A stretch of DNA of 32,000 nt from Fastidiosibacter lacustris (GTDB taxonomy: Bacteria > Pseudomonadota > Gammaproteobacteria > Francisellales > Francisellaceae): positions 1-32,000 of the forward strand of contig NZ_QLIR01000006.1 of assembly GCF_003428155.1 (NCBI RefSeq), given 5' to 3'. Positions 293 through 29,405 of this stretch are shown here, piece after piece (position 1 is the first letter of the stretch; each line of letters begins with the position of its first letter). A program made the position numbers and the translations under genes. A model generated the notes under the pieces. The model had not been told where the DNA came from and did no database searches. It was given only the letters and a program-made list of their open reading frames with translations.

Positions 293-2452
293 CTAGTTTG
301 ATATAACAGGCTTTATTGACTTGATAAATTGGTAATTATTAGTGGCATCTAATGATAATTCCCATGTCATAGCACCTCCAAATTGGGGTTCATTTGAGAG
401 TGCTTTGTAAGCATTTGCCATGGCATTATATGGATCATCCTTATCAGCACCATTATAGACAGTCGCAGCACCAGCAGCACTTGCTGTGGCTGGTTGCCCT
501 GCTATGATTAAGGTGTTTTTAGGGGTGATCTTCTTCAAAGCATAAAAGCTGTTGATAATAAATTTAGCTGACGTTTGATCATAGCAACCAGCTTGAGTTT
601 TTGTACCTAAGCTACCATCCGCACAAACATAATTACCACCTGTATTATACTCTTGAACAAATAAGTAGTTAAATAAACCTTTCTCAATAGCGGCATTGTA
701 AACTTGATCTGTTTGAGTGTTAACATATTGTAGGGTACCACCAACGTTGTTTACCTGTGGTGCACCAGATATTATAATGTTTGGCATTTCAGCTTTAAGT
801 GCTTCGATAAACTCGACTAAATATTCTTTAGTGACATCTCTAGGTACAACTTCAAGGTCAAAGTCAATACCATCAAAATTGTATGTTTTTAGAAAACTGA
901 TAACTTGGTCTGCTACTAATTGAGTTGGTGCTCCAGCTGGATTAAATGTGTTACGTTCTCCACCTATAGAAGCAAGTACATACTTCAAGCCGTATTGCGT
1001 TTTTGCAAGTTCAATATCTGTTTTTATTTTCTCAATTACTTGTGGGTCACTGGCACTGTTATTCCAAGTGCTGTAGGCAAGGAAATGATCATCAACAAAT
1101 TTAACTGGTTTGCCTCCATCAACTATGATAAATGAAGGTAGAGCAATATTATATCCTTGTTTGGCTGCTTCAGAAATTTTTACCGGTTGATTCCAACTGA
1201 CAGGCATATAACCAGCGAGCACTCGGTTGTCTGGCTGATATTTAATTTTATTGCCATTAATAAGCATTGCATCGATAACGTTAAGGCTGTTAGCAACGTA
1301 TTTTTTTCCATCAACGTTGTAACTAGCTGGAGTGATAGTATAACTACCATATTCAGGGATCTTTATATCGTTATTATTAGATTTTAGTTGTTGAGATGCT
1401 GAGTAACCTTCACCTGCAATTGTAGCAATAGGCAATGGATTTGGAGAAGTTCCTTCGGCAAATTCTACCTGTGCCCCGATAGATTTTATTCCAATCGCTT
1501 TTTCATTAAATGCGATATTAAGCGGATAGTCACCTTTTTTATCTATGGTAAAACTGGATGGGGTTATTGTTGGTAAATAAGCATGCATGTCATAAACGTT
1601 GACAATTGTATCTACGGTAGCATTATAGTTGCCTTTACCAAGTTGTAACTTTGCCCCATTTTTACTGATGGTATAAGTTTTATCATTTAATTTTAATGGA
1701 AATTGATTGAAATCATTGAGTCCTGAAACTGTAACATTGAGTGTTCCAAGCGTTTGCGATTGGCAATAAGTCCAGCTGCCATCACCACTATCAGGTGCAC
1801 TATTTGTCCACCATTTTGCTTGCCAAATACCATTTTTGTAACTTACAAATGTATTGCCATCATAATGGTCATTTGGCCAAGCACTTGGTTTTTTCCATTC
1901 AGGTGCATCAGAAGGTACCTCACCTTTACATTGGGTGGCTGGTGCTGGTGGTGTGGGGGCTTCTTTATAACTTAATACAGGCGACTTACTTGTCTCTGTT
2001 ACAGTGTAATTTGTTGGTGAGACTTCTCCTGTTCCTCCTTCAAGTTTAATGGTGTAATCGCTGCCACCTTTGGCGTAAGTTAAAGTAACTTGATTGTTTG
2101 CAACTTTATGTATCCCACCATTTGGGTCAATGAACTCAATAATTGCGTTATTTGGTAGGTTATCAGGTAACGCAATGGTTAATGTTCTTTGCTGATCTAG
2201 TGGCTGAGGGTCAGATTTCTTTTCCCAAGAATTTGCACCATACATGCCAGATGGGCGATAAGCAGCAGATTGACACCATTCAGAATAAGGCCATGGTTTG
2301 CATTGATAAATAATTCCGTTATCAATCACTTCAGTCCCTGCTTTATAGGTTTTTAGTATCTCGGTTTTGTCTTCCCAAGGTTGCGGTGAAGCAATAGCAG
2401 TTGCTGTGCTAAATATTATTGAGATAGAGATAAGTTTTATTTTTGTTTTCAT
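293..2452 (-). CDS. Secreted GH18 chitinase (N-terminal chitin-binding modules, C-terminal catalytic domain)
   Basis: 719-aa ORF. Signal-peptide-like N-terminus MKTKIKLISISIIFSTATAIA. Two aromatic-rich chitin-binding-type modules (YKAGTEVIDNGIIYQCKPWPYSEWC; YKNGIWQAKWWTNSAP, CBM5/12-like). C-terminal GH18 catalytic signature FDGIDFDLE (DxxDxDxE). RBS AGAGGA (rc of 2460-2465) 7 nt before the ATG. Confidence 0.9.
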   Translation of the reverse strand: MKTKIKLISISIIFSTATAIASPQPWEDKTEILKTYKAGTEVIDNGIIYQCKPWPYSEWCQSAAYRPSGMYGANSWEKKSDPQPLDQQRTLTIALPDNLPNNAIIEFIDPNGGIHKVANNQVTLTYAKGGSDYTIKLEGGTGEVSPTNYTVTETSKSPVLSYKEAPTPPAPATQCKGEVPSDAPEWKKPSAWPNDHYDGNTFVSYKNGIWQAKWWTNSAPDSGDGSWTYCQSQTLGTLNVTVSGLNDFNQFPLKLNDKTYTISKNGAKLQLGKGNYNATVDTIVNVYDMHAYLPTITPSSFTIDKKGDYPLNIAFNEKAIGIKSIGAQVEFAEGTSPNPLPIATIAGEGYSASQQLKSNNNDIKIPEYGSYTITPASYNVDGKKYVANSLNVIDAMLINGNKIKYQPDNRVLAGYMPVSWNQPVKISEAAKQGYNIALPSFIIVDGGKPVKFVDDHFLAYSTWNNSASDPQVIEKIKTDIELAKTQYGLKYVLASIGGERNTFNPAGAPTQLVADQVISFLKTYNFDGIDFDLEVVPRDVTKEYLVEFIEALKAEMPNIIISGAPQVNNVGGTLQYVNTQTDQVYNAAIEKGLFNYLFVQEYNTGGNYVCADGSLGTKTQAGCYDQTSAKFIINSFYALKKITPKNTLIIAGQPATASAAGAATVYNGADKDDPYNAMANAYKALSNEPQFGGAMTWELSLDATNNYQFIKSIKPVISN

Positions 2453-2515
2453 AATTAAATCCTCTGTTTATAAAAATATGGGCAAAGAAGCTCGGGTTTA
2501 GTCAAAGTGTATTAG

Positions 2516-5284
2516 TTAATTAGCAGGACGCCAGACTGCATATGGGTTGTTGGCGTATTGAGCACTTGGTAAAGCGCCACCTTGAATGTACCATTGTGCC
2601 TTATAGAGCATGTGATCTAATGGATCAGTAACAACTTCGCCGCCTTTGTAAATTTTATTGCTATCCCAAGGTAAGCCTGGTTGATAAGGCGTCATATCTT
2701 CCCAGACATCAGACTGCCCTGGAATATCACCTTGCGTCCACCATTTTGCTTTATAGTCTATATTGTGGTATTGAACCATATTTCCTTGATAATAAACTTT
2801 ATCTTTTTGCCAAGTATCTTCACTAGGTTGATCTGATTGAGTCTTGAAGTTAATAGGATCTGATGATTTTGATATGCCCGCATCTGGTGCTGAAGCTATC
2901 ACGGTAACACTGTAGTTAGTATCTGGAGAAAGATTAGATAGTGCTTGATTTAGATGTTGAATATTGTCAATGTGTTTTTGGTCTGTATCTGAACTACCAT
3001 AAATAACTTCATATACAATAAGATGTGTTTGTGCAGTTTTTGCTTCGCTCCAACTAACTTGAGCGCTGTTTTTAGTAATGTTATTTGTGTTTACTTTAGC
3101 ATCCCAGTCAATCACAAGTTCTGCTTTTTGTGTTTTTTGTGAGACAGCCGGTGCTTTAAGTGGGGTAATACCTGTGCCTGGCACATTGGCTGTTACTTCA
3201 AAGGTATAGAGGGTATCTGATTTTAACCCCATTACTTTGAATTCAGTGTCAGTCGTGGCGTTTGTAGTAAGTTGTGATAACTTAATAGTTTTATAAACAA
3301 TGTAATTGTTACTATTTTCTTCTTTATAAGAAACAGTATATTCAATAGCGCTTCCATTCCCGCCTAAATAATGCGCAGGGTTCCACATTAGAGTCACAGA
3401 ACTAGCATCATAAGTTTTGACATCAACTTTAGGATTGTCCCAGCTAAGTTTGCCTTGAGTTTGTTCTGTGGTAAATGTGGTATTAGCTTGGTTTGGTTTA
3501 TAGCCGGTGGCGTTTGCACTAACGCTAACAGCATACTTAGTTGCTGCCGATAAATCATTAAGTGTATAACTAGTTTGATTTGTAATTCCTACAATCGTGC
3601 CGTTTAAACTAATTTGATAACTGATTTCAACATTATCCGCTTTTGCTTGAATCCAATTAAGTTTAGCACTACTGCTAGTAATATTGCTTGTCGTTAAGTT
3701 TGGTTGATCCCAGCTAACAGTTTGCTGTTGTGTATCATCACCAGGCACATTAGCTTGGCAATTATATAGTTTGCTTTGATTACTTAAATTAAACGTGCTA
3801 CATGTGCTTTGTAGTACATTAGTTGGAGTCGCCCAGTTGTTATCCCACTTACCAATTACAGCACGATCATAGCGTTGGTCTTTTAAAATATCCCACATGA
3901 TTATACCATCACTGATGCCTTTCATTTCATTTAGCATTTTGTTAACATCGGTCTTAGTAAGATATAAAGCATCTTGATCATTTTGTGGGTAACCTGGTTT
4001 GCCTACTTCAAATCCAAATGAGAGTTTGCCTTTAAGGTGATATTTAGCGGGTTTAATGATACCACTTGCATCAACAATTTCTTGACGTGGTGTATCAGAC
4101 TTAAGCCAGTTTTTATATTCATTCATATAAAAACTCACTTGTCCTACAAGGTCAGTTTTTCCAATATATTGCCCATCCTTTTTAGAGAGGTCATAACTCA
4201 TAACTGCCATCGAATCGAGCATATTAGCTGTATCAATGTCTTTGTGTGCAAGCTCATACATCAAACCTTTTAAATTGCCATGATACCAAGGTGCGCCAAC
4301 GTCATAAGTGGTATTTGGGTCCAAGCCCCATTTACTCATCATAATTGGTGTAGCACCAACAGCAGGTAAAGCAGCGGAAAGTTTTAAATTAGGATCAATC
4401 AATTCAATATAGTGATGAATTGTTTTAATGATGTCCCCAAATTTGGTAACTGTATCAGGCATAATCCCTGGACTACCTAGGCTGATACTTCCACCTTCAG
4501 TATAGGCGTAATCTTTACCGAAGTTATCAATTAATACATTGTAAGGGATGTCTTGATTTGGATATTCAATTGCTAATTGATTAGCTGAGTAACTATCAGG
4601 AACTTTCCATGTATGACTATTTAAATCTGCATGCCAAAACTCTTCGTAATCCAGATCGATTCCGGCGGCACCTAAATCATAGGTAAGTTTAACCAGATTT
4701 TCATAAGCTAATTGTGCCTGCGTTCTTGTAGCTTTGTCATCAAAGCGAGCAGCAACCTCTGGATTAGGGAAGGTGTCATATGTCGCATCTTTTGGACCAC
4801 AATCACCAGAAAGTCCCATAGCTCTTAGACTTTTAGGGTATAAAACAGGATCACAACTAAAGTTCCAGCCACCAACTGCAAGATAAGTATCTACACCTAA
4901 GTCATGCAATTGTTTTATATATGATTTCAATGTTGTAAAGTCAATTTTAGCTGCGGGGTTATTATGTTGTTCTTGAATCTTTTGCACGTCGGCTCGATCA
5001 CAAAAATAACCGAACAACCCAGTACAAGCAAGACTATATGATTGATAATTCATTAAGCTGGGTTGCACAAATGATAAAACAAGCTTATTGAAGTTTGTTC
5101 CTTTTTCCATTTTGATACTGTCAATAAGCGTTTTTAAGGCATTTAAATCAGCATAAGTTTGTCCTTTACTATCGCTTAAGTAGTAGGCAGTAACTTCAGG
5201 TGAATAAGTTTTTATATTATCTGCGTAAATTATCCCAGTTAAACTTACGGTGATTAAAGTGCTAAAGTATTTTATTTTTGACAT
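2516..5284 (-). CDS. Secreted GH18 chitinase (GH18 - 3x FN3 - 2x CBM5/12)
   Basis: 922-aa ORF. Signal-peptide-like N-terminus MSKIKYFSTLITVSLTGIIYA. N-terminal GH18 domain with catalytic GIDLDYEE (DxDxE). Three consecutive ~90-aa fibronectin-III-like repeats (VSWDQPN...TTFTT; LSWDNPK...EVTANVPG; IDWDAKV...INFKT). Two C-terminal CBM5/12-type modules (YHNIDYKAKWWTQG; HMLYKAQWYIQG). Confidence 0.9.
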   Translation of the reverse strand: MSKIKYFSTLITVSLTGIIYADNIKTYSPEVTAYYLSDSKGQTYADLNALKTLIDSIKMEKGTNFNKLVLSFVQPSLMNYQSYSLACTGLFGYFCDRADVQKIQEQHNNPAAKIDFTTLKSYIKQLHDLGVDTYLAVGGWNFSCDPVLYPKSLRAMGLSGDCGPKDATYDTFPNPEVAARFDDKATRTQAQLAYENLVKLTYDLGAAGIDLDYEEFWHADLNSHTWKVPDSYSANQLAIEYPNQDIPYNVLIDNFGKDYAYTEGGSISLGSPGIMPDTVTKFGDIIKTIHHYIELIDPNLKLSAALPAVGATPIMMSKWGLDPNTTYDVGAPWYHGNLKGLMYELAHKDIDTANMLDSMAVMSYDLSKKDGQYIGKTDLVGQVSFYMNEYKNWLKSDTPRQEIVDASGIIKPAKYHLKGKLSFGFEVGKPGYPQNDQDALYLTKTDVNKMLNEMKGISDGIIMWDILKDQRYDRAVIGKWDNNWATPTNVLQSTCSTFNLSNQSKLYNCQANVPGDDTQQQTVSWDQPNLTTSNITSSSAKLNWIQAKADNVEISYQISLNGTIVGITNQTSYTLNDLSAATKYAVSVSANATGYKPNQANTTFTTEQTQGKLSWDNPKVDVKTYDASSVTLMWNPAHYLGGNGSAIEYTVSYKEENSNNYIVYKTIKLSQLTTNATTDTEFKVMGLKSDTLYTFEVTANVPGTGITPLKAPAVSQKTQKAELVIDWDAKVNTNNITKNSAQVSWSEAKTAQTHLIVYEVIYGSSDTDQKHIDNIQHLNQALSNLSPDTNYSVTVIASAPDAGISKSSDPINFKTQSDQPSEDTWQKDKVYYQGNMVQYHNIDYKAKWWTQGDIPGQSDVWEDMTPYQPGLPWDSNKIYKGGEVVTDPLDHMLYKAQWYIQGGALPSAQYANNPYAVWRPAN

Positions 5285-5682
5285 GGCAAAATTCCTATTT
5301 TTTGTACTAATAAATAATTCATTGTGGATGGTTTACAATACTTCATTACAAACTAACTCTACTGTTCTGGTATGAATTGGCAAAGTAGTTTGCTGTGAGG
5401 TATGGAAATACGTACTAGCTTATCCATCACATAAAGTGTGAAAAATCATAATATAAAGTTGGTAAATCCTTTAGTAGATAAAATCGCTTTTTGTGTAAGA
5501 TAGTTGCTACTTTATGTTAAGAAATAATCCATTAATTAAGTAAAATAAATATCTTATATTGGTTTGAATTAATAGAGCATAATGTAGTATTTACATTTTA
5601 TTATTGTGTGCTGGATCTCTGGAAAAATGATTGATAACAGGTATATACTTAGCTTGGAATGCGAATATCGAGAAATTAAAAT

Positions 5683-8840: not shown

Positions 8841-9701
8841 ATGAAGGTCTTGGTTGTATGTGCTGCTGTAACTTTTACTAACTTAGTTAATATAGGTTTT
8901 TCTAAATCAATGATTAATCAAAAAGTGACTATTACACAAATTAAAGATGTAGAACCTTACGTTGATAAATTAAGTCAAAAATATGGCAAGGATTCAGTAT
9001 GTATGGTTTATGACATTGACAATACATTGATTACCAACAATGGGAAATACGCAAGTGAAAGGTGGACATATTGGCAGCAAAGTGAAGGTAACCACCATGC
9101 TAAACATTTATTAAAAGACAAAAACGCAAATATTTATGATTTTTTAAATGCGGTGCGCTATTTTATAAATTACAGTACTGTAGAAAAAGATACAGTACAA
9201 ATTGTTAATAAATTACAATCAGACCATCGTTCAATTGCATTAACTTCAAGAGGATTTAGTGCAGAAGCAACTACATTAAGACAGCTGCGTTTTAATGGTA
9301 TTGATTTTACAAAAAATCCTATTGGCAGTAGGGAGTTTGATGCAAGCTTTTTAAATCAGAATAAATACAAAAATGATTACACAATGTATAGTAATGGTAT
9401 TCAGTATGCAGCTGGCGGAGATAAGGGAGAGCTTTTATATAATTTGATTAAAAAAGAGAGAGAAAAAACGGATAATCCAAATTTATGCCAAGCATTAATC
9501 TATATTGATGACACTAGTAGTAAAGTTGATATGATTGATAATAAATTAAAGAATAAATTTAGCTACTATGCTATTCACTACACCTATTTACCGGACCCTG
9601 AGGATAAAAATAATTGGCAACCAGATAATTGGCACAAAGAGTCTAGTAAAGTTCAGCAACTAGTTGATTTTTTAAACACTACATCACATTTAGCGCTTTA
9701 A
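8841..9701 (+). CDS. Exported HAD-superfamily-like protein of unknown function
   Basis: 286-aa ORF with hydrophobic N-terminus (MKVLVVCAAVTFTNLVNIGFS). HAD motifs occur in the canonical order: motif I YDIDNTL (DxDxT), motif II ALTSRG, Lys in GGDKGE, motif IV YIDDTS. I recall similar proteins as a DUF family restricted to Legionella/Coxiella-type bacteria; this is unverified. Confidence 0.6.
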   Translation: MKVLVVCAAVTFTNLVNIGFSKSMINQKVTITQIKDVEPYVDKLSQKYGKDSVCMVYDIDNTLITNNGKYASERWTYWQQSEGNHHAKHLLKDKNANIYDFLNAVRYFINYSTVEKDTVQIVNKLQSDHRSIALTSRGFSAEATTLRQLRFNGIDFTKNPIGSREFDASFLNQNKYKNDYTMYSNGIQYAAGGDKGELLYNLIKKEREKTDNPNLCQALIYIDDTSSKVDMIDNKLKNKFSYYAIHYTYLPDPEDKNNWQPDNWHKESSKVQQLVDFLNTTSHLAL

Positions 9702-17597: not shown

Positions 17598-17987
17598 ATG
17601 GCTAAGAAGTTGGCACTTATTGGATTTGGTGCAGCTAATTTGTGTGTATTGACGCAATTGAACAAACACCTAAAATACAATGAGATTGAAATTGATATTT
17701 ACTCACCTTTAACAGGGGGGGGAGGTTTATTCGAGGCTTAGCCTATCAGGAAGATATAGATAAGTTGTTATTAAATCACCATCATAAATATATGTCTATC
17801 GACCTTGATGCTCCTGATGATTTTAGTTATTTGTGGAATAAAAGTTAATTATGCCACATCAGAAATTGCACCTAGGTTTTATGCAATTGGGCACTTAACC
17901 TGTGGCACTTTTTTATATACACAATCAATACCTCATTTGGCAAGCAGAGCTAAAACGATCGTTGAACATTTAATGGAGATAATATGA
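17598..17987 (+). pseudogene. Decayed FAD/NAD(P)-binding oxidoreductase gene (frameshift in G8 tract + large internal deletion)
   Basis: Strong RBS GAGGGAG, then ATG at 17598. The product MAKKLALIGFGAANLCVLTQL (GxGxxN Rossmann start) runs ...PLTGGGG to a TAG at 17739. One extra G would give TGGGRFIRGLAYQEDIDKLLLNHHHKYMSIDLDAPDDFSYLW (G.GLAY...LLN...MS motif of FAD-NAD(P)-binding proteins), ending at a TAA at 17846. Frame 0 then resumes with a C-terminal-looking piece, PRFYAIGHLTCGTFLYTQSIPHLASRAKTIVEHL. Its stop overlaps the next gene's start (ATGA at 17984-17987). Total coding is about 130 aa versus about 450-600 aa expected. Confidence 0.6.
17715..17722 (+). repeat. Homopolymeric G8 tract at the frameshift point of the decayed oxidoreductase gene
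   Basis: Direct reading: aaca GGGGGGGG aggttt. Confidence 0.95.
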
Positions 17988-19159
17988 AAGTAATTACTGG
18001 TGGCTGGAAAATAATATCATTTATTGATCTTATGAAATTAAAAATCAATGAAGATACTGTAGTAATGACAGAAAATAATCATGATTTACTCGTTCATCTT
18101 AAGTCGTTGAACATATTTAAAGACGTGATTGGGTATGATGATTATTATAACAATAACAGCGTTTTGCGCGATATAGAACAACTGCATCAGCAACAAAACA
18201 TTACCGATATTATTCCTCTTTCTGAGGCGGATATATTACGGATGGCTGATTTGCGCGATAAGTTAAACATTCCTGGACAACGTTATAAAGAAGCTTTATT
18301 ACTTAGAAATAAACAGCACATGAAAGATAGAGCGGCAAGTTATGGTTTGCACACGGTAATTCCTAAACCAGTTAGCAAACTTGACTTCAATTATCCGTTT
18401 GTTTTAAAAAGTGAAGATGGGGTGGGTAGTTACAATACCTTTATTATCACCAGCAAAGATGACTACGAGAGAGTTAAACATCTCATTACAGACAATTATA
18501 TATTTGAACCATATATAGAAGGTGATATGTATATAATTGATGGTCTTGTATCAAGAGGTAAGGCAATCTATATTAATCCAGGCAGGTATATCGGGACCCC
18601 ACTTAATTTTGTTGGTGGCAATACACAGTCAGTGATGCCACTTTTTGAATATCATCCCTTTTATGATCAATTATTGAGTTATGGTAAAAATCTGGTTGAA
18701 AATGTTTACCCTATGCCCACGCATAGTTGGTTTCATATCGAAGTATTTGTCGATAAAAATGGCTATATAACGCTATGCGAGATTGCTTGCCGAGCTCCTG
18801 GGGTCAACATTCCATTTAACTATAAACTTTCACATGATACAGATATTAATGTTGAACATATTAATTTGCACTACATTCACAATTATGTATGCCCACCAAA
18901 AGTAATCAAAAATTATAAAGTGGGTTCTATGTTCGTTCCACCTAAAGAGGGAAAAATATTGGCTAAACCAAGGCTTCCAGATAGTCAAAATATTATTGAT
19001 ATTGTAGATATGCTAAAAGTGAATCATCAATATGAAAAAATGAAAATGAGTAATGATCCAATTTATAGAATAGTATTCAAAGCAAAGTCAGATCAAGAAT
19101 TTGACTTTATTGTATCAGAACTTAATGAGTGGGCTAGAAATTTGTTATGGGTCAACTAA
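17984..19159 (+). CDS. ATP-grasp domain ligase (carboxylate-amine ligase type), full length
   Basis: 391-aa ORF. Central-domain Lys in PFVLKSEDGVGS, hinge FEPYIEGDMYIIDG, C-terminal Mg-ATP site FHIEVFVDKNGYITLCEIACRAPG. Confidence 0.8.
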   Translation: MKVITGGWKIISFIDLMKLKINEDTVVMTENNHDLLVHLKSLNIFKDVIGYDDYYNNNSVLRDIEQLHQQQNITDIIPLSEADILRMADLRDKLNIPGQRYKEALLLRNKQHMKDRAASYGLHTVIPKPVSKLDFNYPFVLKSEDGVGSYNTFIITSKDDYERVKHLITDNYIFEPYIEGDMYIIDGLVSRGKAIYINPGRYIGTPLNFVGGNTQSVMPLFEYHPFYDQLLSYGKNLVENVYPMPTHSWFHIEVFVDKNGYITLCEIACRAPGVNIPFNYKLSHDTDINVEHINLHYIHNYVCPPKVIKNYKVGSMFVPPKEGKILAKPRLPDSQNIIDIVDMLKVNHQYEKMKMSNDPIYRIVFKAKSDQEFDFIVSELNEWARNLLWVN

Positions 19160-20344
19160 ATGTTGAAAATGTTTAGAATTATCCTTGATAATCGTGATTA
19201 TAGATACTTTTGGTTTGTTAATTTGGGAAGTAATACAGCTATATGGATGCAAACCATGCTGTTTGGTATTCTTGTATCGCAATTATCAAGTTCTGCATTA
19301 ACTAACTCATTAGTACACGTTGCTGCAACGCTTCCTTTCTTTTTACTATGTTTTATTGCTGGCATTATCGGGGACAGATTTAATCAATATTGGGTTATGT
19401 TAATTTGTCAATGTGCGCTTTCAATTACAGCAGTTGCATGTGCAACAATTGGTTATTTAGGTTTTTTTAACACATTTAATTTAATTGTTATTACGTTTAT
19501 TTTTGCAAGTATTATGAGTTTTAGAATGCCAACCTCAGTTGCATGTGTTGCTTCATTAGTCAGAGTTGATCAAGTTGCGTATGCCTCAGTTTTAAATAAC
19601 CTATGCTTTAATATTTCACGAAGTCTTGGACCTGCTTTAGTAGGAGTGTTATTACTGGTTGTCACTGCTCCTACTATATTTATTCTAAGCACAGTCATTT
19701 TTTTGTTGCCTGTAATTTACTTTTACAGATATAGAAAGAAAAAAAGCCTTACAGTTAGCAGAACCAAAAAACTAGAGGGAATAAGTCAATACATTAAGGA
19801 AAAATATTTCATTTATTGCTGTCTGGATATAATGATAATTATGTTTTCTTCTAGTGCAGTGTTAGCATTGTTACCCTACTTTGTGAAATATAATTTGGGT
19901 GGTGATGAAATTGCACAATCAAACTATATGGCTTGTATTGGATTAGGAGCATTTTCTACGATATTTGTTTTGCCTGTTTTGATTAAACGATTTTCTCGTC
20001 AACAGAATGTATTAATTTGTTATGGTTTAACCATATTTTCAACACTGTCATTTTTATTTTATAAATATGAAGATGAATGGGTAATTGCCATCAACTATTT
20101 TATATGTGGTCTTGCTTGGTCGATGTCAATATCGCTCATAAATGCAATGATTCAAGAACGTTATAGAGGGGAAATTGCAGCAAGGGTTATTGCTGTATAT
20201 TTTATGATGATGTACATAGGACAAGCGGCAGGAAGCTTGTTTTTTGGCGCGATATCTGAGTATTCAATGTTGCTGGCATTTGTAGTTGCATTAAGCATAC
20301 TGGTGCTGAGTATACTTACACGATATATTGGCGTTCGGATTTAA
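19160..20344 (+). CDS. MFS transporter, EntS-like (MFS_3 'transmembrane secretion effector' type) exporter
   Basis: 394-aa multi-TM ORF. It starts at the nucleotide after the ATP-grasp stop. N-terminal pattern RDYRYFWFVNLGSNTAIWMQTMLFGILV ... GIIGDRF matches the EntS/MFS_3 family pattern. Confidence 0.8.
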   Translation: MLKMFRIILDNRDYRYFWFVNLGSNTAIWMQTMLFGILVSQLSSSALTNSLVHVAATLPFFLLCFIAGIIGDRFNQYWVMLICQCALSITAVACATIGYLGFFNTFNLIVITFIFASIMSFRMPTSVACVASLVRVDQVAYASVLNNLCFNISRSLGPALVGVLLLVVTAPTIFILSTVIFLLPVIYFYRYRKKKSLTVSRTKKLEGISQYIKEKYFIYCCLDIMIIMFSSSAVLALLPYFVKYNLGGDEIAQSNYMACIGLGAFSTIFVLPVLIKRFSRQQNVLICYGLTIFSTLSFLFYKYEDEWVIAINYFICGLAWSMSISLINAMIQERYRGEIAARVIAVYFMMMYIGQAAGSLFFGAISEYSMLLAFVVALSILVLSILTRYIGVRI

Positions 20345-20393: not shown

Positions 20394-20466
20394 ATAACAG
20401 GTATTAAAAAAAGAAAACCAAAACCAAGAAAAAAGACGATTTGATCAAATACAGATAACAGGTATT
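20394..20466 (+). repeat. 12-bp direct repeat ATAACAGGTATT x2 (61-bp period) upstream of the Rab-like ORF
   Basis: Exact copies at 20394-20405 and 20455-20466. A related GATAACAGGTAT lies at 5633-5644 upstream of the amine oxidase gene. Confidence 0.8.
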
Positions 20467-20537
20467 CTTTTATTTTACGTACTAATATAACATCTTATCC
20501 TTGTTGATTTTTAATTTAAAACATAGGAAAAAATAAA

Positions 20538-21530
20538 ATGAAAAAAGTACTTTTTATACATAACTCATCAAATGAAGATGATAAACAATTAGTTACAAAA
20601 TTAGGTTTTGACAGTCAAAAGCTTCAGACCATCGGGGTTGATTTTGTAAAAAAAAGTGATATGCAAATATGGACAACCGTAGGTGTAGAACGATTTGAAA
20701 CTATATCTCAATCCTATCTTCAAAATACAGCTTTACTTGTTTTTTCGCCTAATATATCCGTTCCCAATGCGGAAGAATATGCTAAAAAAAATTCAGTACC
20801 ATCCTTGCATTTACAAAAAGGTGATCAAAATCTTTCCGGAAATAATCTGATAGAGTTAATGCAAGAGGCGCTTGATCCATTAACAATACAAAAAAACTTA
20901 TCAAATTTTTTACTCAACAAGTCTTATCTAAGCAAAACACACAAAGGTGAACCTCTAATTAAAAACTCTGGACTAATCGCTACAAGTGTTTTGCCATTCC
21001 TAACAAGGCAATCTACTGATAAAAAAATGTTAGCGGAACTTCAAAAGAAAAACCATGAAATTTTAAAAAACGGATCACCAGCCAATAATATTGAACAAAA
21101 ATTAACCAATTTGCTGCAATTTATACACTCACATACTGCCGTGCCAGAAGAGGTCAATAGTCAGTTAAGCACATACACATATAAACTAGAACACGCTGGT
21201 CAAACGTATAATGTGCCATGGAGCGTAATGCAGGCTTACGATCCTAAATCAGCAGGCAATTACGACAGTACAATGGTAATAAACCGATTAAAACAAGATT
21301 TAGCAAAAGTCAATGCTAGTGACATTATTGCACAAAAACTTCTTTCGCCAATGTATGGTGTATTATGGAATAATAAACATGGAGTCTCTACAGAATATAT
21401 AGAAACTCTAAAATCTTCGAATGCACTTTATAAAGAGATAAAATACTCAGATAAAAAAGAAAGTAATAATCACTGTTTTACAATATTTTCAAAAAATAAT
21501 AATAACCAAAATATTGAAAACGTGTGTTAG
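20538..21530 (+). CDS. Hypothetical protein with degenerate Rab-like small-GTPase N-terminus (pseudo-GTPase) and unknown C-terminal region
   Basis: 330-aa ORF with RBS-like AGGAAAAAA upstream. Residues 3-69 align with Rab1-type GTPases: KVLFI(HNSSNEDD), TIGVDF (RabF1, exact), MQIWTTVGVERFETISQSY versus [19 protein letters not shown]. The P-loop GxxxxGKS and DTAGQ are not conserved. No similarity recognised for residues ~110-330. Confidence 0.7.
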   Translation: MKKVLFIHNSSNEDDKQLVTKLGFDSQKLQTIGVDFVKKSDMQIWTTVGVERFETISQSYLQNTALLVFSPNISVPNAEEYAKKNSVPSLHLQKGDQNLSGNNLIELMQEALDPLTIQKNLSNFLLNKSYLSKTHKGEPLIKNSGLIATSVLPFLTRQSTDKKMLAELQKKNHEILKNGSPANNIEQKLTNLLQFIHSHTAVPEEVNSQLSTYTYKLEHAGQTYNVPWSVMQAYDPKSAGNYDSTMVINRLKQDLAKVNASDIIAQKLLSPMYGVLWNNKHGVSTEYIETLKSSNALYKEIKYSDKKESNNHCFTIFSKNNNNQNIENVC

Positions 21531-24405: not shown

Positions 24406-25714
24406 TGTTCGATCCTTGAGCGTGAGTAATCATTTCATTATAGTGAACAACTATCTTGGCATTCTTGGCGACATAATAGTTAGGCGCAGAGTAAGCAATC
24501 GTTGCAAAATCAATTGTACCTCGATTTTTAAAGTCGCCAATTGCGATCCTTGCCACGGATTCATCGGATACCCGCCATTTAGCAAAGACCCCATTTTTTA
24601 TATCGATAGCTTTGTAGTAAAACACACCTTGCCACGGCCATGGACCGCGTAATCCAACCAAGAACTCATCGTCACCATCACCATCAAAATCAGCGCATAG
24701 CACTTGATGACCAGGACCTTCCCCATTTTCATTAGGATCGCCAAAAACATCTAATATTACCCTACTCCATTCAGCATCAGCACCTGGCTTACCATCTGAC
24801 TTGTAATAAACCGCAACTGTATTACCATGGAAAGGCTCAAGTGCAGCGACATACGCAAATGAGTCGTTTCCTATGCGTCCTACATCCATGTCACCTGAAC
24901 CTTTGAAAGATGTTCTTTCAAATTGTGTCAACTCACCAGTGCCAATAAGTTTGCATTGCCATTTTTTAATATTTTCATCGTAGTAAAGCCAAGTAACACC
25001 TTCATCTGAAGCAAGGATAATAGAGTCTAGATTAGAGTTTGGAATAAGCTCTGACTTTATTTCCGCACCATGAATCATTCTAAAACTACTGTGATTGATA
25101 GTTTGCATTGACCATTCTTTAGCAGTATGTACATCGTCAGGTTGTGTGAACATAACTACAGGAAGAACAGCATGTACACTTTCTCTGGCAACAATAGGAA
25201 ATCCCAGAATCTCCAGTCTGTCAGTCTGCGTGAAATGACCAATTCTTAAACGATGCATACCTGTTGTACGACCAACATAGTGTCGTTTCCAACGTTCTTT
25301 TACATCAGCATTTTGACCAGGATTCTCAATCCAATCAATCTTGCCACCTGAGGTATCTGCATCATGTATTGTGCCAACAGGACCATAAAGTTCATAGCAT
25401 ACCAGAATATCTGGATAGCCATTACCTGTTATATCAGCGTAAGCACCACCTACCGGCATTCTAATTTTGTCAACTACTAAATGTTTTTGCCAATCAGGAT
25501 TTTTATACCAGTAGATTTCACCTAAAGTCAAACCGTAGCCAAATAAGTCTATCTTACCGTCTTGGTTTATGTCTAAGGCTTCTAACCAATACCCATCACG
25601 CAAATTCTCTGCTACGATCTCTTTGGTAAATTTAGGCACAAAACCTGCTTTGGTTGCTTGATCGTTTAAAAACTTTGTAAAGTCACCTACTGTTTTATCC
25701 GTTAGTGTTGCCAT
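24395..25714 (-). CDS. Cytoplasmic FG-GAP/VCBS-repeat beta-propeller protein
   Basis: Asp-rich FG-GAP-type loops DINQDGKIDLFGYG, DITGNGYPDILV, CADFDGDGDDEFLVG, IGDFKNRGTIDFA. No signal peptide or TM segment. The ATG at 25714 (MATLTDK) has RBS GGAGAGGAG 8 nt upstream and is preferred over the ORF-track start at 25759. 11-nt overlap with the downstream SDR. Confidence 0.75.
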   Translation of the reverse strand: MATLTDKTVGDFTKFLNDQATKAGFVPKFTKEIVAENLRDGYWLEALDINQDGKIDLFGYGLTLGEIYWYKNPDWQKHLVVDKIRMPVGGAYADITGNGYPDILVCYELYGPVGTIHDADTSGGKIDWIENPGQNADVKERWKRHYVGRTTGMHRLRIGHFTQTDRLEILGFPIVARESVHAVLPVVMFTQPDDVHTAKEWSMQTINHSSFRMIHGAEIKSELIPNSNLDSIILASDEGVTWLYYDENIKKWQCKLIGTGELTQFERTSFKGSGDMDVGRIGNDSFAYVAALEPFHGNTVAVYYKSDGKPGADAEWSRVILDVFGDPNENGEGPGHQVLCADFDGDGDDEFLVGLRGPWPWQGVFYYKAIDIKNGVFAKWRVSDESVARIAIGDFKNRGTIDFATIAYSAPNYYVAKNAKIVVHYNEMITHAQGSNNGF

Positions 25715-27490: not shown

Positions 27491-28204
27491 TCATCTTGAC
27501 TTAGATGAGGTTGCCTGTTTTGTATATTTAAACATATTGACCACATGATGCAGACCATTGCTACTCACTACATCGACTACATATTCGTCACCATAAATAA
27601 GCTTTTGAACCAAAACTTCTTGATTTATGTTGCCAGAATAATCAACTTTACCTAATAAGTTCTCACAGGCAGTTCTAATTTCATTTTCATTATGACAAAA
27701 ATGAACACCTTCCGTGCCAAATGACATTATTGGTTTGACAACAATGTCTGTTAACTTTTGAGTTTTTATCCACTCAAGTATTTGATCAATAGATGATGAT
27801 TTAAAAGATGGAATATGGCAAATACCGTCATTCCGTAGCTGTTCCATCATCAGATATTTATCTCTTCTTGCACGACTCTTTTTCACATCATTAGGTGACA
27901 GATTCCAGCAATTGGATAATACGTCAAATACAAGTACACCAGGCTCTGAGCCACAGACAATGTATTCTGGCGGACCTCCAAGCACACGTTCAATTTCAAT
28001 TATCATTTCATCAATAGAGTCATTTAGCGTAAAAATCTCTGTAAAATCAGTCTTCCTAAGACCTGATAAAAGAAGCTGTGGTAATTTTGTATTTGTGATT
28101 AACGCCAAACAATTGTAGCCATATTTCTGTTTGATTCTTTCGGAAAATTGTGCCCCACTTGAAAATGGGTCTACTATGAGTACTGTTGGTCTGATAGAAG
28201 ACAT
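27491..28204 (-). CDS. ATP-grasp protein, N-terminal + central domains only (C-terminally truncated?)
   Basis: Pre-ATP-grasp and central domain features: TVLIVDPFSSG, RRDKYLMMEQL, IVVKPIMSFGTEGV, LVQKLIYGDEYVVDV. It stops after about 237 aa with no Mg-ATP E-x-N/R motif. The ATG at 28204 (MSSIRP) has RBS GAGAGG and lies 4 nt after the MFS stop; it is preferred over the ORF-track start at 28249. Confidence 0.65.
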   Translation of the reverse strand: MSSIRPTVLIVDPFSSGAQFSERIKQKYGYNCLALITNTKLPQLLLSGLRKTDFTEIFTLNDSIDEMIIEIERVLGGPPEYIVCGSEPGVLVFDVLSNCWNLSPNDVKKSRARRDKYLMMEQLRNDGICHIPSFKSSSIDQILEWIKTQKLTDIVVKPIMSFGTEGVHFCHNENEIRTACENLLGKVDYSGNINQEVLVQKLIYGDEYVVDVVSSNGLHHVVNMFKYTKQATSSKSR

Positions 28205-28208
28205 GGCA

Positions 28209-29405
28209 TTACCTCTCAACTTGATTTGTTTGTTCTTTCTCTTTGACAAAATACAATGCTATCGCACCACACAATGCCATAATTGCAGAATAGATTAGCG
28301 CTTTTGCCCAATCTTGGTTTTGAAATAACTCACCGTAAATCATCGCAGCAAAAGCCCCACCAAGATAGAATGACAATTGCCTAATACTGGAAGAGATTAA
28401 TATACGATTATTATCAAAGCCAGAGATTGTTAATGTGTCGAGCAATGGCATCAATGCGTAATTAAGTATCAAACGCCCAAAATAAAGAGAGATGAACACA
28501 GCAAATGGTAATAATAATGACTGTAAAAGTAACACTGAAAAGGTTATCACCCCAATTAGCAACAATATTCTTTTAAGGTTGTATTTTTTGACGAGAACAG
28601 GTGCACACAAAGCACCGAATATACTAACTATTTTATCTAAACCAAGCACTGCAGAAGCCTCGGTCACATCTAACGAATATGCCTGGTTGAATAAAATATT
28701 GGCAAATCTAAAAACCAAAGTAATAGATCCACCCAATAAAAACGCTGCGATAAATAGCATTAATAAATTACGCCATTCCAAAGCATTCGGAGTATTGCCA
28801 AATGCCGTTTTATCTTCTAATTCTCTAACACCATTAACAGAATGAAAGCGAACAAACACCATAAGCAGCGCAGATAGAGATGCCACCAATAAAACACCGC
28901 AGTAGTTATACTGTGGTTCAAATGGAGAGTATTTAGTTACTATTACAACAATAAATGAGGCTAGCATTGCAGCGCCCAGGTAAAAAACAAAAAAGTAGCT
29001 GAACATTTTTGTTTTATTATCACCTGCATGTGCGCCAAACAATGAATTACCCGTTGATAAGACTGCTATCATTCCTGATAATATCAATCCTAGGGCTATA
29101 GAGTTTGAATTAACAGTGGTACAAAATGGCAAAGCCAGAAATGAAATGGCATATACAATTGACGATATCAATAATAATTTTTTTACTGAAATCTTTCTAC
29201 TCGCGATCATTAGAGGGACTACCGCCGCAGACATCATAAACATAGAAAAAGCGTAAATTTGTCCAGTACCTACTTTGTCAATGTTGTTTGCCTCTAAATA
29301 GAAATTATAAACTGCATCAAACAGACCATTACTGAATCCCATAACCCCTGTTGCTAGCAAAAACAATTGTACCGGTCTATCAAAGGTAAAAAATAATTTA
29401 ACCAT
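28209..29405 (-). CDS. MFS transporter
   Basis: 398-aa ORF with about 12 hydrophobic segments. AGGAA RBS upstream. Embedded in the AurF-like operon. Confidence 0.8.
   Translation of the reverse strand: MVKLFFTFDRPVQLFLLATGVMGFSNGLFDAVYNFYLEANNIDKVGTGQIYAFSMFMMSAAVVPLMIASRKISVKKLLLISSIVYAISFLALPFCTTVNSNSIALGLILSGMIAVLSTGNSLFGAHAGDNKTKMFSYFFVFYLGAAMLASFIVVIVTKYSPFEPQYNYCGVLLVASLSALLMVFVRFHSVNGVRELEDKTAFGNTPNALEWRNLLMLFIAAFLLGGSITLVFRFANILFNQAYSLDVTEASAVLGLDKIVSIFGALCAPVLVKKYNLKRILLLIGVITFSVLLLQSLLLPFAVFISLYFGRLILNYALMPLLDTLTISGFDNNRILISSSIRQLSFYLGGAFAAMIYGELFQNQDWAKALIYSAIMALCGAIALYFVKEKEQTNQVER

Follow-up and report, generated by a model that had tools for sequence, protein, structure and literature searches.

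The 32,000-nucleotide (nt) stretch of the Fastidiosibacter lacustris genome analysed here (contig NZ_QLIR01000006.1, positions 1 to 32,000; hereafter the window) raises the question of what a bacterium might do with a protein that has the family-specific blocks of a eukaryotic Rab GTPase and a molecular switch that is dead yet conserved. The protein is encoded by a complete open reading frame (ORF) of 330 codons plus stop on the forward strand (20538..21530), exactly as delimited by a first-pass annotation made from the letters alone; it starts with an ATG and is preceded by an AGGA about 11 nt upstream. Its product combines a pseudo-Rab domain, a helical linker, a new C-terminal domain and a polar tail. 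The database counterpart, 100% identical, is an NCBI 'hypothetical protein [Fastidiosibacter lacustris]' (Thiotrichales, Fastidiosibacteraceae), and it bears this label because its two Pfam matches, to Roc at E=8e-5 and to Ras at E=2.5e-4, score slightly below the respective gathering scores. An identical protein, with one synonymous nt difference in its gene, is found at the same locus and in the same gene order in 'Ca. Nebulobacter yamunensis' (JAMBMW). This organism lives as an obligate endosymbiont in the ciliate Euplotes, and its genome shares an average nucleotide identity of 99.38% with that of F. lacustris.

The first-pass annotation had recognized Rab-specific blocks, in the right order, at the N-terminus of the protein, and this similarity is borne out by phmmer, a family profile and hhalign. 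The Rab-like pseudo-G domain occupies residues 1-113 (20538..20876, +), from beta1 to approximately alpha4, as delimited by hhalign, a PDB profile search, AlphaFold2 (AF2) and Foldseek. Searched as a single sequence against the PDB with phmmer, the protein matched Rab1B best (E=9e-5), followed by Rab35, Rab43, Ypt6, Sec4 and Rab8, and among the best 60 matches 60/60 were Rabs. A profile of four family members recovered 184 PDB sequences at E<=0.01 with a best E-value of 8e-8, and its top 60 were again all Rabs. Likewise, the hhalign comparison of the family with a Rab alignment gave a probability of 98.3% (E=2.3e-14), placing residues 3-74 over Rab1b residues 10-91 (beta1-beta4). When the family profile was scored against individual GTPases, Rab1b obtained 35 bits, Ran 3 bits and HRas and RhoA no match. 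Judged by these comparisons, the N-terminal domain is homologous specifically to the Rab GTPases; the profile check against small GTPases that the first pass had proposed thus returned a significant and Rab-specific match. Chance or generic small-GTPase similarity was considered and rejected on the hhalign E-value and the Rab-selective profile scores. No single Rab paralogue can be named as the source: the single sequence favours Rab1B/Rab35 and the profile Rab9/Rab3/Rab1, at near-equal scores.

The structural support for this derivation is weaker than that from sequence. AF2 models residues 1-113 at a predicted local distance difference test score (pLDDT) of 71-84 in the order beta1-alpha1-beta2-beta3-alpha2-beta4-alpha3-beta5-alpha4; beta1-beta5 and about four helices are present, with beta6/alpha5 not modelled. 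In Foldseek this model matched only Rab/Arf-type G domains (E down to 4e-5, probability 1.0); the predicted fold, which the first pass had wished to see compared, is thus of the G-domain type and not an unrelated one, albeit at low template modelling scores (TM-scores). Among the top eight matches are three complexes of nucleotide-free Rabs with a guanine nucleotide exchange factor (GEF; 2eqb, 4lhx, 2ocy) and one GDP-bound Rab8:GRAB complex (4li0). The likeness of the model to the nucleotide-free Rab:GEF state is suggestive only, the E-values being nearly flat and the match statistically indistinguishable from those to other Rab structures.

The motifs of the G domain can be followed one by one. 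At the P-loop position, where Rabs read GDSGVGKS, MAFFT and hhalign place HNSSNEDD (residues 8-15; 20559..20582, +), confirming the lost P-loop of the first pass: no Gly, Lys or Ser/Thr stands in register with the G1 pattern GxxxxGK[S/T]. The switch I/RabF1 signature TIGVDF (residues 31-36; 20628..20645, +) is intact by phmmer, MAFFT and hhalign, the exact match claimed earlier. It is followed by MQIWTTVGVERFETISQSYLQN (residues 42-63; 20661..20726, +), which hhalign and MAFFT resolve into beta3, a dead G3 and switch II (RabF2-F4), and which includes the block MQIWTTVGVERFETISQSY (residues 42-60) that had rightly been assigned to switch II/RabF2-F4. Here both programs align DTAGQ with TTVGV, and an 11-residue Rab stretch of switch II is replaced by ERFETISQSYL; the beta2-beta3 hairpin is indeed 8 residues shorter than in Rab1b. 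Two earlier statements need amendment. An NKxD motif had been called absent from view, whereas MAFFT aligns a vestigial G4, QKGD, after beta5 (residues 93-96; 20814..20825, +) with NKSD (LHLQKGD versus LLVGNKSD); and AEEYAKKNSVPSLHLQK, taken for the beta6/SAK segment, sits better at alpha3/beta5 (AF2 helix 77-84 and strand 89-91; MAFFT). Remnants of beta6/alpha5 may instead lie in the helical linker (residues 114-184; 20877..21089, +), modelled by AF2 at low confidence (pLDDT <50), where GEPLIKNSG can be set against GIPFLETSAK; in this half phmmer extends its alignment to Rab1B residue 172, whereas hhalign gives no support.

Residues F36, W45 and Y60 are the counterparts of the Rab1b triad F45/W62/Y77, and S59/Y60 align with Rab1b S76/Y77, of which Ser76 is the target of the Legionella enzyme AnkX. 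The earlier view that the protein keeps the Rab interaction surfaces therefore stands for this copy, in which the triad is complete, and falls for the family, in which only the Trp is invariant. The RabF1-F5 blocks of Pereira-Leal and Seabra are reportedly IGVDF, KLQIW, RFRSIT, YYRGA and LVYDIT; the window protein has the first exactly and partial versions of the others (F2 MQIW, F3 RFETIS, F4 SYLQNTA, F5 LLVFSPNIS), and the blocks drift among family members. In place of the Rab family patterns DxxGQ (G3) and NKxD (G4) it has TTVGV and QKGD. A Rab prenylation motif (CC, CXC, CCXX and the like) is absent: the protein ends in ...NIENVC, with one terminal Cys, and the Cysteiniphilum orthologue in ...SYHLK. 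Lacking G1, G3, G4 and a prenylation signal, the protein does not belong among the Rab GTPases proper. At the sequence level it is a pseudoGTPase, uniting G-domain homology and lost G motifs with retention under selection.

That retention is seen in the relatives. An exhaustive profile search of 1.84 billion representatives returned 16 proteins only. The full-length orthologues, from Cysteiniphilum litorale and C. halobium, are 337 amino acids (aa) long and 51% identical to the window protein, and in the Cysteiniphilum orthologue HNSSNEDD and IWTTVGVER are letter-identical. Two standalone relatives without the C-terminal domain have similar replacements: P0018 (174 aa; CP073743.1, L010 8001-8525), from an unclassified Thiotrichales genome, has HDSSNKAD at the P-loop and SKND at G4, and P0017 (196 aa; L007 668-1258), from a metagenome, has HSTTNEND and NEND. 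Across the relatives the G4 position reads NAGE, NEND or SKND, with QEND in locus L013, and the TIGVDF position INGIDF, PIGIAY or TTGVDM. Between Fastidiosibacter and Cysteiniphilum the ratio of nonsynonymous to synonymous substitution rates (dN/dS) is ~0.31 at a synonymous divergence (dS) of ~1.25, with 0.35 for the N-terminal and 0.24-0.30 for the C-terminal domain; it is 0.29-0.35 for C. halobium against C. litorale or against the metagenome copy, and 0.67 for C. litorale against the metagenome copy, a value from 11 substitutions only. The reading frame is intact in four genomes. Because the dead motifs are shared and dN/dS is ~0.3, comparison speaks for a pseudoGTPase family maintained by selection rather than for a gene in decay. 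The first-pass annotation had named intact P-loops in orthologues and a dN/dS near 1 as marks of a pseudogene: the orthologues lack an intact P-loop, and the ratio is ~0.3. A metagenome scan with the pseudo-Rab profile gave no match, and one with the C-terminal-domain profile gave only the contig already found. The neighbours of the 174-aa protein, in a 3.2-Mb genome, are orphan genes, an IS3 transposase and a gene for a 2252-aa giant protein.

With the Lys/Ser of the P-loop, the Asp/Gln of G3 and the Asn of G4 lost, no guanine nucleotide binding or cycling is expected; and as the switch is dead yet conserved, function through binding, rather than through GTP cycling, is indicated. Briefly, we advance the following mechanism as the best-supported, if tentative, reading: the protein would be a translocated effector, in which a Rab-derived, nucleotide-independent domain imitates a Rab and sequesters or mislocalises a host partner. 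It would be exported into a protist host, probably via a Dot/Icm-like type IVB system of the Fastidiosibacteraceae, with the polar tail and its hydrophobic-Phe-[N/D/S] motif serving as a putative export signal. The N-terminal domain, a descendant of a eukaryotic-type Rab, still has its Rab-specific signatures in switch I, the interswitch and switch II (F36, W45, Y60), and as a permanently nucleotide-free look-alike it could occupy a partner of host Rabs. This partner would most plausibly be a GEF, a tight binder of nucleotide-free Rabs, or else a GDP dissociation inhibitor or Rab escort protein (GDI/REP) or a Rab effector, and with it occupied, one step of host trafficking would be blocked or diverted. 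The C-terminal domain would supply a localisation or adaptor function common to the paralogous island proteins described below. What the data themselves show is the Rab homology, degenerate motifs kept by purifying selection, a C-terminal module found on several proteins and the proximity in the genome to LepB_N-like, AnkX-like and DotD genes; the rest of the scheme, from the lost nucleotide binding and the translocation to the partner in the host and the task of the C-terminal domain, we infer. A more specific version is rather doubtful: the family would comprise secreted 'frozen' Rab mimics, in which the acidic, Ser-rich HNSSNEDD replaces the nucleotide, and which trap a host Rab1/Rab35-type GEF or regulator and act with an AnkX-like phosphocholine transferase, delivered and positioned by a C-terminal domain and tail signal that an entire set of effectors of these protist symbionts would share. 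If so, no pseudoGTPase effector would precede it, and a new effector-module and signal system outside the Legionellales would be defined.

Several known systems place this proposal in context. Eukaryotic pseudoGTPases, such as CENP-M and the pseudoGTPase domains of p190RhoGAP, have a G-domain fold without nucleotide binding. The likeness to the window protein lies in the G-domain-like fold, the degenerate G1-G5 motifs and the role of a selected interaction module; however, they are endogenous scaffolds, whereas the window protein is bacterial, Rab-derived, apparently truncated after ~beta5/alpha4 and classed from sequence. Dominant-negative, nucleotide-free Rab mutants of the Rab1 N121I type offer a second comparison: such mutants and the Rab:GEF complexes (2EQB, 2OCY, 4LHX) exemplify tight GEF binding, and the complexes are among the best Foldseek matches. 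The pseudo-Rab is a potential natural 'nucleotide-free Rab' reagent. Among bacteria, Rab-domain proteins have been described as quasi-unique to Legionella, where they reportedly keep the Rab structural features and include proven Dot/Icm substrates (e.g., L. longbeachae Llo1716/Llo3288; bioRxiv 10.1101/350777). These effectors resemble the window protein in having a eukaryote-derived Rab domain, often fused to others, and in coming from bacteria that associate with amoebae or other protists and have a type IVB system. They differ in keeping the Rab features, whereas the window protein has a ruined P-loop, G3 and G4, with the dead motifs conserved; further, the latter comes from the Fastidiosibacteraceae and is fused to a new domain, not to a U-box, F-box or ankyrin module. 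The occurrence reported here extends eukaryote-derived Rab modules beyond Legionella to the Francisella-related Fastidiosibacteraceae. In a literature search on Rabs and bacterial effectors, the word 'pseudoGTPase' appeared in none of the 15 papers ranked highest.

The other half of the protein might also be asked to carry the activity. Residues 185-303 (21090..21446, +) form a new alpha/beta domain, consisting of a helix, a beta-hairpin and five helices, as delimited by hmmsearch, alignment A2 and AF2. The first pass could recognise no similarity in the last ~220 residues, for which Pfam and PDB searches likewise gave nothing, and we obtained no match for this domain in Pfam (10 sequences), among PDB sequences (by profile), among PDB folds or in BFVD. 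An exhaustive hmmsearch with it recovered P0003-P0008 and P0012 (family E-values 1e-10 to 1e-71), comprising at least five other orphan proteins with unrelated N-termini from Fastidiosibacter/Nebulobacter, Cysteiniphilum and Caedibacter taeniospiralis; the domain is confined to this Fastidiosibacteraceae set. Its carriers are P0012/P0021 of F. lacustris (592 aa), P0007 (574 aa) and P0004 (451 aa, with the domain twice in tandem; L016 10001-11356) of Nebulobacter, P0005/P0019 of Caedibacter taeniospiralis, and P0006, P0008 and the 462/466-aa proteins of Cysteiniphilum. From the 10-sequence alignment AF2 gives a predicted TM-score (pTM) of 0.72 and a core pLDDT >85, and the family motifs LTxLLxF[IV], YTY, Yx[VL]PWSxMxAY, GLKxDL and SPMYG..NN..GV[ST] are all present in the window protein.

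Hence arises the alternative, which we regard as unlikely, that the C-terminal domain is the active part, as an enzyme or a binder of host proteins or lipids, with the pseudo-Rab as a targeting module or scaffold that takes it to membranes or to Rab-binding machinery; the protein would then be a Rab-addressed carrier instead of a sequestering inhibitor. This would fit the better conservation of the C-terminal half (dN/dS 0.24-0.30 against 0.35, and long invariant blocks), its joining to several different N-terminal modules, its tandem duplication in P0004 and its confident folding by AF2. It accords poorly with the absence of any enzyme match by fold or sequence and of the conserved His, Cys, Glu and Arg set typical of hydrolases and transferases: apart from one Asp, invariance is mostly limited to Tyr, Asn, Leu, Pro and Gly, a set that we read as favouring a binding domain over an enzyme. 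Moreover, the existence of the standalone pseudo-Rabs P0017 and P0018 argues that the N-terminal domain can serve a purpose by itself.

Two observations concern the N-terminal parts of these carriers. In P0004 each tandem copy is preceded by similar repeats (PSIRMAF/Y...DDQK.FDLLLAK), and the 456-574-aa paralogues (P0006/P0007/P0019; L005 7065-8453) share an N-terminal module, NNNDCL...HNGxHYSN. An OTU- or Cys-protease-like reading of the latter (NNNDCLLIAIGRL...HNGAHYSN) was entertained and set aside, as it found support neither in Pfam nor in PDB profiles.

The proposal of a translocated Rab imitator draws further on the genomic settings of the relatives. In L. pneumophila, AnkX is a FIC phosphocholine transferase of Rab1/Rab35 and LepB is a Rab1 GTPase-activating protein with an N-terminal lipid kinase domain; homologues of the AnkX FIC region and of LepB_N are island neighbours of the pseudo-Rab orthologue or of the C-terminal-domain paralogues, and are not themselves homologues of the pseudo-Rab. 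The Nebulobacter genes for the 592-, 574- and 451-aa paralogues and for a LepB_N protein adjoin one another, ~10 kb from a gene for DotD (PF16816) at the edge of locus L015 (positions 1-51). LepB_N (PF18640) proteins are encoded at L005 9054-10649 (C. halobium; E=1e-22), L003 27-1658 and L015 13957-15570. The same island goes on in Cysteiniphilum, where it reads, in order: the LepB_N protein, orphans of 1004 and 355 aa, a variable gene, the pseudo-Rab orthologue and an OmpR-type regulator. The variable gene encodes a coiled-coil protein in C. halobium and an AnkX-like FIC protein in C. litorale (L003 6199-7434, 411 aa) and in a metagenome contig (L001 98-1018); the AnkX-like gene is co-directional with the pseudo-Rab orthologue and ends 17-18 nt upstream of it (17 nt in C. 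litorale). By phmmer, residues 33-273 of this protein match AnkX residues 28-278 (E=8e-10; HPYRDCNCRTFV versus HPFRDANGRTFV) with PDB 6SKU as the top match; Pfam Fic falls below threshold (E=0.005). Compared with AnkX, it has DCNCR in place of DANGR (Cys at two motif residues) and is without ankyrin repeats. The LepB_N-like and AnkX-like genes, by analogy with Legionella, point to a shared toolkit directed at Rabs and phosphoinositides.

As for the export machinery, Icm/Dot components including IcmE have been reported from Caedibacter (PMC7297999) and icmO from Cysteiniphilum (PMC10228398). The label of candidate effector, given in the first pass, thus gains circumstantial support from three sides: the near-identity of the organism with a ciliate endosymbiont, the clustering of paralogues with LepB_N and DotD, and the AnkX-like neighbour. 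Legionella-like AnkX and LepB_N modules occur in bacteria that span free-living forms and obligate ciliate endosymbionts of nearly identical genome, and together with an uncharacterised domain and a candidate export motif they provide handles on the manipulation of protist membrane traffic.

The proximity of the two genes could also be taken to mean that the pseudo-Rab serves the AnkX-like FIC protein as a dedicated partner, a non-modifiable substrate mimic that, much like a meta-effector or an antidote, keeps the enzyme inactive within the bacterium or adjusts it in the host. AnkX phosphocholinates Rab1 at Ser76 in switch II and contacts Rab1b via switch II (PDB 6SKU; PMC10115812), and the Cysteiniphilum pseudo-Rab has Q/M at the positions of the target Ser76 and of Tyr77; further, the 17-18 nt co-directional arrangement is seen twice independently, in C. 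litorale and on a metagenome contig. Nevertheless, we consider such a partnership improbable: a coiled-coil gene replaces the AnkX-like gene in C. halobium; the window pseudo-Rab retains Ser59/Tyr60; and the AnkX-like protein and the pseudo-Rab carry the same putative export tail. In F. lacustris and Nebulobacter there is no AnkX-like gene near the pseudo-Rab gene, and a word-indexed search, of limited sensitivity and hence no proof of absence from F. lacustris, returned the gene from Cysteiniphilum only.

The tail on which export of the Rab imitator would depend comprises residues 304-330 (21447..21527, +) and is polar and disordered. It contains FTIFS (residues 314-318; nt 21477-21491), an instance of the hydrophobic-Phe-[N/D/S] motif lying 15 residues from the C-terminus. 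The motif is found at -15 to -22 in non-homologous island proteins, namely the AnkX-like, 1004-, 427- and 402/403-aa and LepB_N-like proteins, and also in all proteins with the C-terminal domain, the variants being EFSLFN, MLFN, SMFN, KMFN and TLFN (loci L003, L004, L005, L015). In P0007 the C-terminal domain is internal and EFSLFN still stands at the protein end; thus, the motif is positional. Counted conservatively, 6/10 island families have it against 3/48 other ORFs (Fisher p=3.5e-4, for a motif defined post hoc).

Several points weigh against the effector proposal as a whole. The tail motif was defined after inspection of the data, and its role in export is offered as a hypothesis only. 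The type IV secretion system of F. lacustris lacks virD4 and virB5 by TXSScan (PMC9837558), which makes export in this strain uncertain. The neighbours of the gene in the window are transporter and metabolic genes and form no effector island. The residues by which Rabs bind their partners vary within the family: Cysteiniphilum has Q/M for S59/Y60, and W45 alone never changes. The confident alignment is limited to beta1-beta4, the second half of the G domain being unsupported by hhalign, and the Foldseek TM-scores reach no more than 0.3-0.4, owing to the poor quality of the model elsewhere. Finally, a metagenomic relative (L013 238-240, also L014) has a TAA stop in frame within the linker, where the window protein has P153, and three independent assemblies agree on it; this stop splits the N- and C-terminal modules into two ORFs. 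The C-terminal domain of this relative is 66% identical, and, as in Cysteiniphilum, a gene for an OmpR-type regulator follows downstream. The fusion is therefore dispensable in at least one lineage.

The same in-frame stop, together with the loss of all G motifs, the low GC content (31.8%, and 24% at third codon positions, GC3) and the position of the gene as an isolated singleton in the window, could be read as signs of a functionless, decaying remnant of a horizontally acquired Rab, an alternative raised in the first pass that we now consider very improbable: the frame is intact in four genomes with dN/dS ~0.3 at dS ~1.25, the dead motifs do not differ from one genus to the other and reappear in two more lineages, and one synonymous change is the only difference from the endosymbiont strain. 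Small Ras-like GTPases exist in prokaryotes and the family is confined to bacteria, yet descent from a native MglA/Rup-type GTPase, or chance resemblance, with no link to eukaryotic Rabs is extremely improbable given that the top PDB matches are all eukaryotic Rabs, that the IGVDF, QIW and ERF.TI..Y blocks are present and that the profile scores 35 bits for Rab1b against 3 for Ran and none for HRas or RhoA. The remaining probability falls to functions not named here.

Turning to the locus itself, the gene has a GC content below the 36.2% of the window, and the first-pass remark on its AT-richness is correct, the bin 20501-21500 having the lowest GC of the window profile (0.313), if marginally so. 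Upstream, a gene pair encoding ATP-grasp and MFS_3 proteins runs in the same direction across a gap of 193 nt; downstream, an MFS_1 gene is convergent with a gap of 54 nt, and beyond it lie two short-chain dehydrogenase/reductase (SDR) genes. Farther away, the window contains genes for transporters, peptide chain release factor 2 (RF2), lysyl-tRNA synthetase (LysRS) and a chitinase-like protein. A promoter/terminator scan around the gene gave nothing beyond shuffled expectation, and an Rfam scan of the window found no family. The 193-nt upstream intergenic region contains two exact copies of a 12-mer, ATAACAGGTATT, at a spacing of 61 nt (20394-20405 and 20455-20466, +). Allowing <=1 mismatch there are 4 matches in the window against 0.43 expected, the one-mismatch copies lying at 5634-5645, just upstream of an amine oxidase gene, and at 25421-25432. 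The repeat is kept in locus L012, and going by its letters it may be a candidate binding site for a regulator.

Elsewhere in the window, the ATP-grasp and MFS transporter combination occurs in two gene pairs, at 17984-20344 and at 27491-29405 (-). The latter adjoins genes for an AurF-like N-oxygenase, an arylamine N-acetyltransferase and a serine hydrolase, and this region may be a small-molecule biosynthesis cluster. At 293-5284 (-) are encoded two large, probably secreted proteins, one of 719 aa with a GH18 domain and the other of 922 aa with three Fn3 repeats and a CBM5/12 chitin-binding module, and at 8841-9701 a DUF2608 protein (E=3e-30).

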